IMG/VR virus record: IMGVR_UViG_2698536480_000007
Strand: one strand, 5' to 3'
DNA: 13,226 bases
From: a virus
Taxonomy: Duplodnaviria > Heunggongvirae > Uroviricota > Caudoviricetes
The translations under genes and the position numbers were made by a program. Shown here in pieces: positions 2,338 through 6,222 of the stretch. The first letter of the stretch is position 1. Each line of letters starts with the position of its first letter. The notes under the pieces were generated by a model. The model did no database searches. It worked only from the letters and a program-made list of their open reading frames with translations, and was not told where the DNA came from.

Positions 2338-2724
2338 TTCCTTTCTCAGGACAAAAAAAGACACGAGCATACAGGAATACTCGTGGGACAACGTCCTTTA
2401 GATAGCAATTTGCGAGAGGGTGAAAAGTAGCGCGGTCGTCGGATTAAGACCGCGGGACAAAGTCCATGAAGAATAATAAGTATTGGCCCCTTCTGGGGAC
2501 ATGTTCATACTACTAAGCTTCAGAAGTGGTTTAAATCATCAAATTAACCTTAATTTTCGATAAGTCTTATTTCATTTCTTTGCGCCACACCTGGCGCGCA
2601 TCAAATAACGCCACGCAAAGGGCATCTGCGGATGCCGGTGCTTTTGACGGGGTGTTTTTTACGGGCCGCTGGTGGCCATTTTTTGTTTCCATTACACAGC
2701 GCCCGCATCTGCGAGGTGGGGGTT

Positions 2725-2940
2725 ATGAAATCCATGGATAAGTTAACAACAGGTGTCGCCTATGGCACCTCCGCAGGCAGTGCTGGCTACTGGTTTTTAC
2801 AGTTGCTCGATAGAGTCACGCCCTCACAGTGGGCAGCAATAGGTGTGCTGGGTAGTCTGGTGTTTGGCCTGTTGACGTATCTGACAAATCTTTATTTCAA
2901 GATTAAAGAAGATAAGCGTAAGGCTGCACGGGGAGAGTAA
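2725..2940 (+). CDS. class II holin, phage-21 S-type pinholin with dual-start motif
   Basis: 71 aa [26 protein letters not shown]...[11 protein letters not shown]: two TM segments, first one Gly/Ala-rich. N-terminal M-K-S-M gives the antiholin (Met1) and holin (Met4, ATG 2734) starts. SD GAGGTGGGGG upstream. The upstream part of the ORF-track ORF (from 2632) was rejected. Confidence 0.8.
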
Positions 2941-2944
2941 TTCA

Positions 2945-3289
2945 ATGACTCAAAACTATGAACTGATTGTGAAAGGGATCCGCAATTTTGAGAATAAAGT
3001 TACGGTAACTTTAGCGTTACGGGACAAAAAACGCTTTGACGGTGAAATTTTAGACCTGGACATCTCGCTGGACCGTGTTGAAGGTGCCGCGCTGGAGTTT
3101 TATGAGGCAGCAGCCAGAAGGAGCATCAGACAGGTCTTCCTGGATGTTGCTGCCGGGTTATGTGAAGGGGATGAGCAGTCACCGGAAAAGCGCCCCATAA
3201 TTTTAGAGGCGCAGGGTGTGTGGATAACCTACAAAGGAAAACTGCCGGGAAGAATTACTGGTTCACTGAAGACTCCGCCGAAATGGTAA
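2945..3289 (+). CDS. YdfR-like protein of unknown function (DUF1327-type, the kind found between holin and endolysin in Qin-type cassettes)
   Basis: 114 aa starting MTQNYELIVKGIRNFENKVTV...LEFYEAAARRS, recalled as YdfR-like. SD GGGGAGAG with ATG 5 nt after the holin stop (translational coupling). The C-terminal ~35 aa look atypical and overlap a convergent ORF. Confidence 0.55.
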   Translation: MTQNYELIVKGIRNFENKVTVTLALRDKKRFDGEILDLDISLDRVEGAALEFYEAAARRSIRQVFLDVAAGLCEGDEQSPEKRPIILEAQGVWITYKGKLPGRITGSLKTPPKW

Positions 3290-3527
3290 TTTCACCAGCA
3301 TATTTTTCTTCCAGTAATACCGCCAGCCACTTGAAAGAATTTTGTTGTTGCTGGGACCATTTGGGGTTGAGTGATTCAAGCTGGAGCGATGCCAGTGTTG
3401 GTTGCATTTGTTCCTTGGGAATTGAGAATGCCAGATATGAAAATGCGACAGTAAGGGCATTTACATCATCCCGAAGCTTGGAAATGCAGTCGAGCAACTC
3501 CTGTAGAGAAATGGTGCTATTGTCCAT
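3255..3527 (-). CDS. hypothetical small protein, convergent antisense gene in the holin-endolysin gap
   Basis: 90 aa from ATG (minus strand, + coords 3525-3527), preceded by AGAGAGGA with 6-7 nt spacer. Upstream on the minus strand are TTGAAT and TAAATA hexamers with 15-bp spacing. Fills a 343-bp gap that has no + strand gene. A chance ORF of this length is not excluded. Confidence 0.3.
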   Translation of the reverse strand: MDNSTISLQELLDCISKLRDDVNALTVAFSYLAFSIPKEQMQPTLASLQLESLNPKWSQQQQNSFKWLAVLLEEKYAGEITISAESSVNQ

Positions 3528-3632
3528 AAACAATCCTCTCTATTGTATTTAACTATTCCTTGCCTGATTCAACAGGCCGGGACAGATAAACATATCCAGG
3601 GTTCAGAAACCGATAAATCCTGATAAATATCC

Positions 3633-4166
3633 ATGAACGCAAAAATCAGATACGGCCTGTCGGCTGCCGTTCTGGCACTGATTGCCGTCGGTGCGCCTGC
3701 GCCTGATATTCTCGACCAGTTTCTGGATGAAAAAGAAGGTAACCACACAACGGCATACCGCGATGGTTCCGGCATCTGGACCATCTGTCGTGGTGCCACA
3801 ATGGTGGATGGTAAGCCCGTCATACCGGGAATGAGGCTGTCGAAGGAAAAATGCGACCAGGTTAACGCTATTGAACGTGATAAGGCGCTGGCATGGGTGG
3901 AGCGCAATATTAAAGTACCACTGACCGAACCACAGAAAGCGGGTATAGCGTCATTTTGTCCCTATAACATTGGCCCCGGTAAGTGTTTCCCGTCGACGTT
4001 TTATAAGCGGCTGAATGCCGGTGATCGTAAAGGTGCATGCGAGGCGATTCGCTGGTGGATAAAAGATGGTGGGCGCGATTGCCGCATACGTTCAAATAAC
4101 TGCTATGGACAGGTTATTCGTCGTGACCAGGAAAGCGCATTAGCCTGTTGGGGGATAGATCAGTGA
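3633..4166 (+). CDS. endolysin, GH24 T4-lysozyme-like with N-terminal SAR / signal-anchor-type segment
   Basis: 177 aa. Weakly hydrophobic Ala/Gly-rich N-terminus ([17 protein letters not shown]), then catalytic E-x8-D-x5-T triad ([16 protein letters not shown]). Partnered with a pinholin as in phage 21. Confidence 0.85.
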
Positions 4167-4627
4167 GCAGAGTCGCCGCGATTATTTATGCTCTGGTTAT
4201 CTGCATCATCGTCTGCCTGTCATGGGCTGTTAATCATTACCGTGATAACGCCACCGCCTACAAAGAGCAGCGCGACAAAAATGCCAGAGAACTGAAGCTG
4301 GCGAACGCGGCAATTACTGACATGCAGATGCGTCAGCGTGATGTTGCTGCGCTCGATGCAAAATACACGAAGGAGTTAGCTGATGCGAAAGCTGAAAATG
4401 ATGCTCTGCGTGATGATGTTGCCGCTGGTCGTCGTCGGTTGCACATCAAAGCAGTCTGTCAGTCAGTGCGTGAAGCCACCACCGCCTCCGGCGTGGATAA
4501 TGCAGCCTCCCCCCGACTGGCAGACACCGCTGAACGGGATTATTTCACCCTCCGGGAACGACTGGTAATGATGCAGGCCCAACTTGAAGGTGCTCAGCAA
4601 TACATAACCGAACAGTGTTTAAAGTAA
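4163..4627 (+). CDS. Rz: i-spanin Rz (lambda-type)
   Basis: [30 protein letters not shown]... matches lambda Rz closely through the central region from memory. GTG 4163 overlaps the endolysin stop TGA 4164-4166; the ORF-track start TTG 4148 is the alternative. N-terminal TM segment followed by a coiled-coil region. Confidence 0.85.
4383..4568 (+). CDS. Rz1: o-spanin Rz1 lipoprotein, embedded in Rz in the +1 frame
   Basis: 61 aa [24 protein letters not shown]...: lipobox LVVVGC, Pro-rich periplasmic part, near-identical to lambda Rz1 from memory. Confidence 0.8.
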
Positions 4628-4764
4628 AATCTTAACTACAATATGATTCATTTTGATGATTGTTTCATAAGGAACAGTGAAGTAAGATCTAAGAGGAGTT
4701 AAATTTTATACAGTATAATCATAATATTGCAGCAAGGTGGTTATAATTGAAAGAATATTTAGAT

Positions 4765-6222
4765 ATGAATACATCTCATGTAAGAGTTGTTACTCATATG
4801 TGTGGGTTCCTGGTTTGGCTCTATAGTCTTTCAATGTTGCCACCAATGGTTGTAGCATTGTTTTATAAAGAAAAAAGCCTGTTCGTTTTCTTTATAACTT
4901 TCGTTATATTTTTTTGTATTGGTGGCGGAGCGTGGTATACAACTAAGAAATCTGGCATTCAATTACGTACCCGTGATGGGTTTATTATAATTGTAATGTT
5001 TTGGATTTTGTTTTCTGTTATTAGTGCATTCCCTTTATGGATTGACTCAGAACTTAATTTAACGTTCATTGATGCTCTGTTTGAAGGGGTTTCTGGAATA
5101 ACAACAACAGGAGCAACTGTAATTGATGATGTTAGTTCATTACCTCGGGCATATTTGTACTATCGGTCACAGTTAAATTTTATAGGTGGTTTAGGAGTTA
5201 TTGTTCTGGCGGTTGCTGTATTGCCATTATTGGGTATTGGTGGTGCAAAGCTTTATCAGTCAGAAATGCCGGGGCCATTTAAGGATGACAAACTCACTCC
5301 CCGCCTGGCCGATACGTCACGGACACTGTGGATAACTTATTCTTTATTAGGTATTGCTTGTATTGTCTGTTATAGACTTGCAGGAATGCCTTTGTTTGAT
5401 GCTATTTGTCACGGGATTTCCACAGTTTCGCTTGGTGGTTTCTCAACTCATAGCGAGAGTATCGGATATTTTAATAACTATTTGGTTGAGCTGGTGGCTG
5501 GTTCTTTTTCCCTGCTATCGGCTTTCAACTTCACTCTTTGGTATATTGTTATTAGCAGGAAAACGATAAAACCTTTAATCAGAGATATTGAACTTCGTTT
5601 CTTTCTGTTAATAGCCTTAGGGGTGATCATTGTTACCTCTTTCCAGGTCTGGCATATAGGTATGTATGACTTGCATGGAAGTTTTATTCATTCGTTTTTT
5701 CTTGCCAGCTCCATGCTCACTGATAATGGTTTAGCTACGCAGGATTATGCAAGCTGGCCCACGCACACGATAGTGTTTTTGCTGTTGTCAAGTTTCTTTG
5801 GGGGATGTATAGGTTCAACTTGTGGTGGAATTAAGTCACTTCGATTTCTTATACTTTTCAAACAAAGCAAACACGAGATAAATCAGCTTTCTCATCCCAG
5901 AGCGTTGTTGAGTGTAAATGTAGGAGGGAAGATAGTTACAGATCGTGTAATGAGGTCTGTATGGAGTTTCTTTTTTCTTTATACTCTCTTCACGGTGTTT
6001 TTTATACTGGTGTTAAATGGTATGGGATATGATTTTCTTACATCATTTGCAACAGTGGCTGCATGTATTAATAATATGGGATTAGGTTTTGGGGCTACTG
6101 CATCGTCATTCGGAGTGCTTAATGACATTGCAAAATATTTAATGTGCATAGCTATGATTCTTGGTCGCCTTGAAATTTATCCTGTTATTATATTGTTTTC
6201 AGGTTTTTTTTGGCGCTCCTAA
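4765..6222 (+). CDS. trkG: TrkG/TrkH-family potassium uptake transporter
   Basis: 485 aa from ATG 4765 (MNTSHVRVVTHMCGF...), multi-pass membrane protein with repeated GxG selectivity-filter-like segments (GISGITTTGAT, GIGGAK, SLGGFST, GLGFGAT). Matches K-12 Rac TrkG as recalled. A TTG at 4747 with better SD spacing is an alternative start. The gene is visibly AT-rich relative to its flanks. Confidence 0.85.
   Translation: MNTSHVRVVTHMCGFLVWLYSLSMLPPMVVALFYKEKSLFVFFITFVIFFCIGGGAWYTTKKSGIQLRTRDGFIIIVMFWILFSVISAFPLWIDSELNLTFIDALFEGVSGITTTGATVIDDVSSLPRAYLYYRSQLNFIGGLGVIVLAVAVLPLLGIGGAKLYQSEMPGPFKDDKLTPRLADTSRTLWITYSLLGIACIVCYRLAGMPLFDAICHGISTVSLGGFSTHSESIGYFNNYLVELVAGSFSLLSAFNFTLWYIVISRKTIKPLIRDIELRFFLLIALGVIIVTSFQVWHIGMYDLHGSFIHSFFLASSMLTDNGLATQDYASWPTHTIVFLLLSSFFGGCIGSTCGGIKSLRFLILFKQSKHEINQLSHPRALLSVNVGGKIVTDRVMRSVWSFFFLYTLFTVFFILVLNGMGYDFLTSFATVAACINNMGLGFGATASSFGVLNDIAKYLMCIAMILGRLEIYPVIILFSGFFWRS

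Follow-up and report, generated by a model that had tools for sequence, protein, structure and literature searches.

The gap of about 690 bp between the genes for the pinholin and the SAR endolysin in the phage DNA that we have studied holds a real gene in reverse orientation, which is present in about one fifth of E. coli genomes. The DNA is a stretch of 13,226 nucleotides, which we will call the window. We will call the gene X: we are confident that it is an accessory gene that codes for a protein, and it is already catalogued in databases as a hypothetical protein. It is probably a passenger gene (a moron) of a Rac/Qin-type late region, with its own transcription mainly in the lysogen, and it would act on the host and not in lysis. 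The value of X is that of a defined candidate for cargo expressed in the lysogen, not of a new mechanism. The new elements presented here are the demonstration of its coding frame, the homologs found between dinI and bssS in Serratia, the boundaries of the mosaic segment which carries the gene and the reuse of the same junction by unrelated antisense genes.

An earlier note on this DNA had proposed that a gene transcribed against the late operon would be expressed in the lysogen and opposed by late transcription, as a factor of lysogenic conversion, exclusion or lysis timing. As a whole this interpretation is partly supported.

Organization of the lysis region

The window corresponds to the late region of a lambdoid prophage of the Rac/Qin type. 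Upstream of the lysis cassette there are two tRNA genes, tRNA-Thr(UGU) and tRNA-Gly(UCC), in positions 1795–1948, and two terminator-like hairpins (2621–2677) are found immediately ahead of the holin; this arrangement is consistent with a late leader of the pR'/tR' type. The holin is of the S21 type, a class II holin or pinholin with 71 aa (2725–2940, plus strand; PF04971, E=5e-35). It is followed by a YdfR-like late gene of 114 aa (2945–3289, plus strand), which belongs to DUF1327 of Pfam (E=8e-42) and to phrog_406. The endolysin is a phage lysozyme of the SAR type with 177 aa (3633–4166, plus strand; PF00959). Rz/Rz1 start at 4148, and trkG (4747–6222) comes directly after them, as it does in Rac. 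The 5' end of trkG has a low GC content, 0.27–0.36.

From the end of the holin at 2940 to the ATG of the endolysin at 3633 there is a gap of 692 bp. The earlier note had described this interval with correct coordinates and anatomy. Gene X has 90 codons and lies on the minus strand in 3255–3527, with its ATG in 3527–3525. It has a Shine-Dalgarno sequence, AGAGAGGA (3541–3534, minus strand), placed six bases ahead of the ATG, and it overlaps the YdfR-like gene tail-to-tail by 35 nt (3255–3289), all of it as the note had claimed. The orientation of X, antiparallel to the late operon and convergent with the YdfR-like gene, also agrees with the layout of the window. No plus-strand gene is found in 3290–3632: the sole long frame in this strand (3220–3552), with 110 aa and a GTG start, is a shadow of X and not a gene. 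Upstream of X there is a spacer of 105 nt (3528–3632, minus strand), divergent from the start of the endolysin, which is the presumed promoter region.

The ATG of the endolysin (3633) has no recognisable Shine-Dalgarno sequence in the region 3600–3635. In the Qin prophage of K-12 the start of the endolysin overlaps the stop of ydfR (ATGA), which suggests translational coupling. Such coupling is lost in the window, because ydfR ends 343 nt upstream of the endolysin; phages with the uncoupled layout are nonetheless viable.

Coding frame and expression of gene X

The annotation program PGAP calls X as a coding sequence in every genome that we inspected, under the name WP_000370546.1, hypothetical protein. 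The identical protein is annotated in this same position in ATCC 8739, in strain 135 and in the BL21-like strain DL21. X also matches the PHROG profile phrog_2411 with E=4.3e-59, over positions 1–90 of 90; phrog_2411 and WP_000370546.1 are the same protein as X, with no difference. Among 5.8 billion proteins searched we have found 63 relatives with 67–99% identity, and those which are named come nearly all from Escherichia and Shigella. When all the loci that we fetched are considered, the frame of 90 codons is intact in 238 out of 243. The start codon is conserved together with the Shine-Dalgarno sequence, whose core GAGGA/AGGA is retained in divergent variants of E. coli, in Citrobacter and in Serratia.

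An alignment was prepared with 71 unique cassettes, from holin to endolysin, taken from IMG/VR and from genomes. In the frame of X the variable sites are distributed as 17, 14 and 35 over the three codon positions. Within E. coli only two of the six frames have a dN/dS value below 1: X (0.33) and the plus-strand frame 3220–3552 (0.25), which shares its third codon positions with X. The values for X within E. coli, 0.33–0.41, correspond to moderate selection. Distant homologs were brought in because dN/dS within E. coli cannot separate X from its shadow. The most useful one is found in Citrobacter meridianamericanus, with 83 aa and 63% protein identity; it also matches phrog_2411 (E=1.5e-33), and the nucleotide similarity of its locus with the window is too low for blastn. 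In this comparison X has a dN/dS of 0.15 and codon-position differences of 22, 21 and 47, whereas the shadow frame has 0.30 and an internal stop. The excess in third positions is restricted to one pair of frames, of which the minus frame alone stays open. The value of 0.25 found for the shadow within E. coli is misleadingly low and calls for caution when frames are called from close relatives only.

It is hardly credible that the true gene is the plus-strand frame of 110 aa, perhaps expressed through a -1 frameshift from ydfR, and that X is its shadow. The frame is open in the window, its third codon positions are those of X and its dN/dS within E. coli is equally low; besides, longer proteins of the YdfR family do occur, with 183 aa in phrog_2091 and 296 aa in phrog_1085. 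Against it, internal stops are present in 14 of the 35 unique E. coli sequences and the frame is also interrupted in the homologs from Citrobacter, vB_EcoS-783R2 and phiSTEC1575-Stx2k. The shadow frame has no match in the PHROG and Pfam families, its dN/dS against Citrobacter is twice that of the minus frame, and the 183-aa YdfR extends in the frame of ydfR itself into unrelated sequence, not into the shadow. We have rejected both a plus-strand gene and a frameshift extension of ydfR, since homologs carry stops and there is no family match. X is the coding frame, because its reading frame is kept in nearly all the loci and the shadow is stopped in homologs.

The earlier note had considered that homologous cassettes might be conserved at the nucleotide level only, with stops or frameshifts that disrupt the minus-strand frame. 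In the homologous cassettes that we have compared this is not the case. The PHROG match, the intact frames and the distant homologs indicate that X is a true gene which can be translated, and not a chance frame. Frameshifted variants of X with 94 aa and a few nonsense alleles are found among its database relatives. The 94-aa variants (clusters P0045, P0049, P0051 and P0058) part from X after a QQQQ run, encoded by CAA/CAG in about 3340–3352 of the minus strand of the window, and their alternative frame remains open up to a stop inside ydfR. Broken alleles are what one expects of cargo in decaying prophages, and they would equally fit a gene whose value is marginal.

The same data bear on the alternative that the interval is a non-coding cis-antisense RNA, which the earlier note had also put forward, or a regulatory spacer, so that the frame of X would be incidental. 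Within E. coli the spacer is as conserved as the frame (mean pi 0.043 and 0.040 respectively), no indels are found across 2729–3690 in the 71 unique cassettes, and the dN/dS of X in this species is just moderately below 1, all of which would fit a non-coding element. It is nevertheless very unlikely. The protein is conserved in Citrobacter and, at 28–40% identity, in Serratia and other genera, beyond the range in which blastn can align the DNA. The conservation of start codon and Shine-Dalgarno sequence runs counter to a non-coding RNA, and so does the third-position excess in a single pair of frames with the minus frame alone open. A search of Rfam over positions 2400–4300 of the window gave no match at E<=1. 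The chromosomal homologs of X have nothing opposite to them which could be regulated. An antisense RNA is disfavoured because of this lack of a target, together with a conservation at the protein level which reaches below 35% identity.

The promoter of X is less clearly defined. The two hexamers upstream of X that the earlier note had considered promoter-like, TTGAAT (3572–3567) and TAAATA (3551–3546), are 15 nt apart, agree with the consensus in 7 of 12 positions and fail a consensus scan. They are replaced by TTGCCT and TCAATA in divergent related cassettes: they are weak and not conserved. Our consensus scan of the minus strand at X gave no sigma-70 promoter and no terminator. The best candidate which is fully conserved is formed by TTATCG (3616–3611) and TATGTT (3594–3589), separated by 16 nt, with 8 of 12 positions. 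The distal part of the 105-nt spacer is invariant, and the whole spacer moves with X into the different lysis cassette of phiSTEC1575-Stx2k. The Citrobacter homolog is preceded by a site with 9 of 12 positions; scans for promoters and terminators in three homolog loci found little. Since no promoter or terminator passes the scan, we infer an independent transcription of X from its orientation and from its homologs.

The protein family and its chromosomal members

The AlphaFold2 model of X is a three-helix bundle with a pLDDT of 81. The helices would span residues 8–33, 38–52 and 59–77, and residues 80–90 are predicted to be a disordered tail. The protein has no signal peptide and no lipobox, and the prediction is that of a soluble bundle of helices. 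A profile was searched against 1.84 billion representative proteins and a second, word-indexed search was then carried out. The distant homologs found have 28–40% identity and about 81–106 aa; they belong to Serratia, Chania, Gibbsiella, Chimaeribacter, Sodalis and Acerihabitans. The family can be aligned without gaps across the three helices, even where identity falls to 28%, and has the motif ELL..I..L+..vN.L.vAFSYLAF....lI.sL+lEsqN....Q..F..LA. X belongs to an Enterobacterales family of proteins of about 90 aa, which would be cytoplasmic three-helix bundles.

The homologs of Serratia and Chimaeribacter are found in a fixed chromosomal locus, pyrC-dinI-X-bssS-solA (L168, positions 4001–4282; L170–L172; L179–L180). 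The Serratia gene has an AGGAG site of its own, and between dinI and this gene there is an intrinsic terminator. In Sodalis and in a metagenomic lineage the homolog is a stand-alone chromosomal gene. The dinI-bssS homologs (P0084, P0089 and P0106; Serratia, Chania, Gibbsiella and Chimaeribacter) belong to the same family as X, with 28–38% identity. Their setting is different: they are stand-alone genes of the core chromosome, outside any prophage, co-oriented with their neighbours and with no convergent partner. Thanks to this chromosomal gene the family can be studied outside phages. The stand-alone homologs of Serratia mildly argue, by their genomic position, against a role of X specific to lysis. 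Another member of the family, P0067, with 39% identity, adjoins phage terminase genes. Scans of IMG/VR with distant members of the family gave the E. coli group only.

The earlier note had suggested a homology and structure search of the 90-aa protein. It was successful as regards phrog_2411 and the distant homologs described above. In other collections nothing was found: X has no significant match in Pfam or NCBIfam, a sequence profile search of the PDB gave no match, and a search of the PADLOC defence models at E<=1 gave no family, whether the query was X, its Serratia homolog or YdfR. A LexA box was not found by eye upstream of X or of the Serratia homolog. We found no account of X in the literature; the one useful paper was an RNase E study of YdfR (PMC13232886).

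The mosaic segment, its neighbours and the possible role of X

The Qin prophage of K-12 has the organization essQ-ydfR-rrrQ with no antisense gene, and the stop of ydfR overlaps the start of rrrQ. X is an accessory gene, as it is apparent from this comparison: Qin lacks it and its ydfR abuts the endolysin. The alignment of the window with Qin is lost at about 3151 and is recovered at 3623, 9–10 nt ahead of the endolysin ATG. The mosaic segment thus delimited (3152–3622, about 470 bp) is absent or different in Qin; it contains a variant C-terminus of YdfR, X and the 105-nt spacer upstream of X. Its GC content differs modestly from that of its surroundings, 0.42–0.455 over 3200–3699 versus 0.50–0.525 on either side.

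We have found the segment in 1120 out of 5426 complete E. coli genomes (about 21%), when at least 80% of positions 3160–3625, nearly the whole segment, had to be matched. Carriers of X include BL21-like strains, ATCC 8739 and UTI89. A contig of Escherichia ruysiae has an identical X. Coverage of the 13-kb window does not exceed 75% in any complete E. coli genome of the collection. X is also present in isolated, active phages: Chlobot, vB_EcoS-783R2 and phiSTEC1575-Stx2k. In the last one the same segment adjoins another holin and an endolysin of the M15 type, with its boundary at the former ATG of the endolysin. The Citrobacter homolog lies beside an unrelated set of holin, endolysin and Rz. 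These occurrences indicate that the segment travels as one block. X is oriented against the late genes in each of the three diverged phage contexts.

The YdfR-like neighbour is 80% identical to YdfR of K-12 in residues 1–74, and from about residue 70–75 to its end at 114 it has an alternative C-terminus. YdfR of Qin is a DUF1327 protein, like the neighbour of X, and X itself is unrelated to it; the two YdfR proteins differ in their 40 C-terminal residues, and K-12 has no antisense gene. The earlier note had considered the C-terminus in the window atypical. It is one among several common variants: the protein matches phrog_406 along its full length (114 of 114 positions), and its match to the Pfam profile reaches position 92 of 93. 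When the interval is compared across related cassettes, as the note had proposed, the frame of X is kept and evolves at the protein level; neither the hexamers nor the oddity of the YdfR tail is upheld.

A different gene is found in the same slot in E. coli THO-008. It is an antisense gene of 86 aa (L258, positions 1785–2045; phrog_2572, WP_001557934.1), flanked by a YdfR-like gene and the endolysin, and it overlaps the 3' end of ydfR by 53 nt. Its segment, again with at least 80% matched, is found in 294 of the 5426 E. coli genomes, and the gene is also carried by phages PhiR63_1, 2H10, PhiR5_1 and the PhiR12 series. This gene resembles X in position, orientation, convergence and overlap with ydfR and size, and its product is also predicted to be helical. 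It differs in being paired with a YdfR of 183 aa and in its lack of detectable homology with X; a common origin of the two genes was rejected, with a probability of 0.3% in hhalign. The tail of YdfR in the window continues into the 183-aa YdfR where the phrog_2572 gene is present. The YdfR-like gene of THO-008 (L258, positions 1286–1837) is an intact frame of 183 aa which matches phrog_2091 over 183 of 183 positions. The label that PGAP gives it, a pseudogene with a 'missing C-terminus', is probably mistaken. The junction between ydfR and the endolysin appears to be a hot spot for small genes in reverse orientation, with at least two unrelated occupants.

The convergence of X with its neighbour is recurrent. 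The 3' overlap measures 35 nt in E. coli, 14 nt in Citrobacter and 20 nt in L173, the terminase-proximal locus of the family member with 39% identity. The partners end in RITGSLKTPPKW in E. coli, KITGSLRVPMKL in Citrobacter and RLTGDILIPLES in L173, so that a C-terminal motif [KR][IL]TG[SD][LI] is found in the three diverged phage contexts. The Citrobacter partner has 238 aa and does not belong to DUF1327, and that of L173 is a frame of 62 aa. Their similarity is limited to about 17 residues, with pairwise E values of 0.002 and 0.025 and one pair unaligned; we have rejected both of them as YdfR homologs, since they are alike in this tail alone.

These features could mean that X and the YdfR-like protein are functional partners, X being either an antagonist of the latter or an immunity factor for it. 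They could also mean that the overlap works as a switch; transcription through the common 3' ends, or antisense pairing between them, would then set the timing of lysis or keep a leaky late expression harmless in the lysogen. The recurrent overlap and the similar end motif favour such a reading, and a plain moron would leave a possible functional pairing out of account. Furthermore no terminator is predicted for X; transcription from it would thus proceed, in antisense, into both ydfR and the holin gene. YdfR of K-12 binds RNase E's N-terminal, catalytic domain and co-purifies with RNA (PMC13232886), which makes a link at the RNA level conceivable. We nevertheless consider a functional partnership or switch unlikely. 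The homologs of X in Serratia, Chimaeribacter and Sodalis have no such partner. The phage partners share only their short tail, the Citrobacter one being outside DUF1327, and the same YdfR tail accompanies an unrelated antisense gene in THO-008. The overlap covers the last 11 residues of X, which are disordered in the prediction and not conserved, and the YdfR tail ITGSLKTPPKW.

The similarity of the partners may also have a simpler source. In Citrobacter (L007, positions 3250–3273) the frame of the X homolog is cut short by a TAG, and seven codons further on there is a remnant, N-Q-stop, which matches the C-terminus of E. coli X; it follows that the tail of X is dispensable. The motif of the Citrobacter partner overlies this DNA, which is homologous to the 3' end of the ancestral X. 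The presence of N-Q-stop under the motif points to one ancestral DNA segment, and the likeness of the motifs may be due to common descent alone. The pairing of X with its partners is most likely an inherited architecture, because the partners are otherwise unrelated, the Citrobacter remnant points to one ancestral segment, and the tail in THO-008 goes with another gene. A bolder version would make X and the YdfR tail an anciently linked pair in E. coli, Citrobacter and the terminase locus, in which X, made in the lysogen, neutralises or tunes the YdfR-like protein by contact or antisense pairing. We give it little credence, slightly less than to the partnership or switch in general. If true, X and YdfR would be a new small switch which links lysogeny to the control of late genes and lysis.

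The passenger gene remains our preferred explanation. X would have an independent transcription starting in the 105-nt spacer, mainly in the lysogen, and in lytic growth it would be silenced by the head-on late transcription antiterminated by Q. The protein would bind a cellular partner and act on host physiology in the manner of small connector or regulator proteins, and not in lysis. The overlap of 35 nt with ydfR is most simply a by-product of the join between the segment and the late gene. Taken jointly, an own promoter, expression in the lysogen and an action on the host have in our opinion about an even chance of being correct.

The morons of lambdoid late regions, such as bor (and lom) of lambda, are the closest analogues of X by their layout. 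The bor gene is found just after Rz on the opposite strand; it has its own promoter and is expressed in lysogens, two features which we only infer for X. Both X and bor are small accessory genes placed by the lysis genes and antiparallel to late transcription, both are absent from close relatives and both have a GC content below that of their flanks. They have no relation in sequence or fold, Bor being an outer-membrane lipoprotein. Unlike bor, X is internal to the cassette, with the holin/ydfR genes on one side and the endolysin on the other, and it overlaps a late gene.
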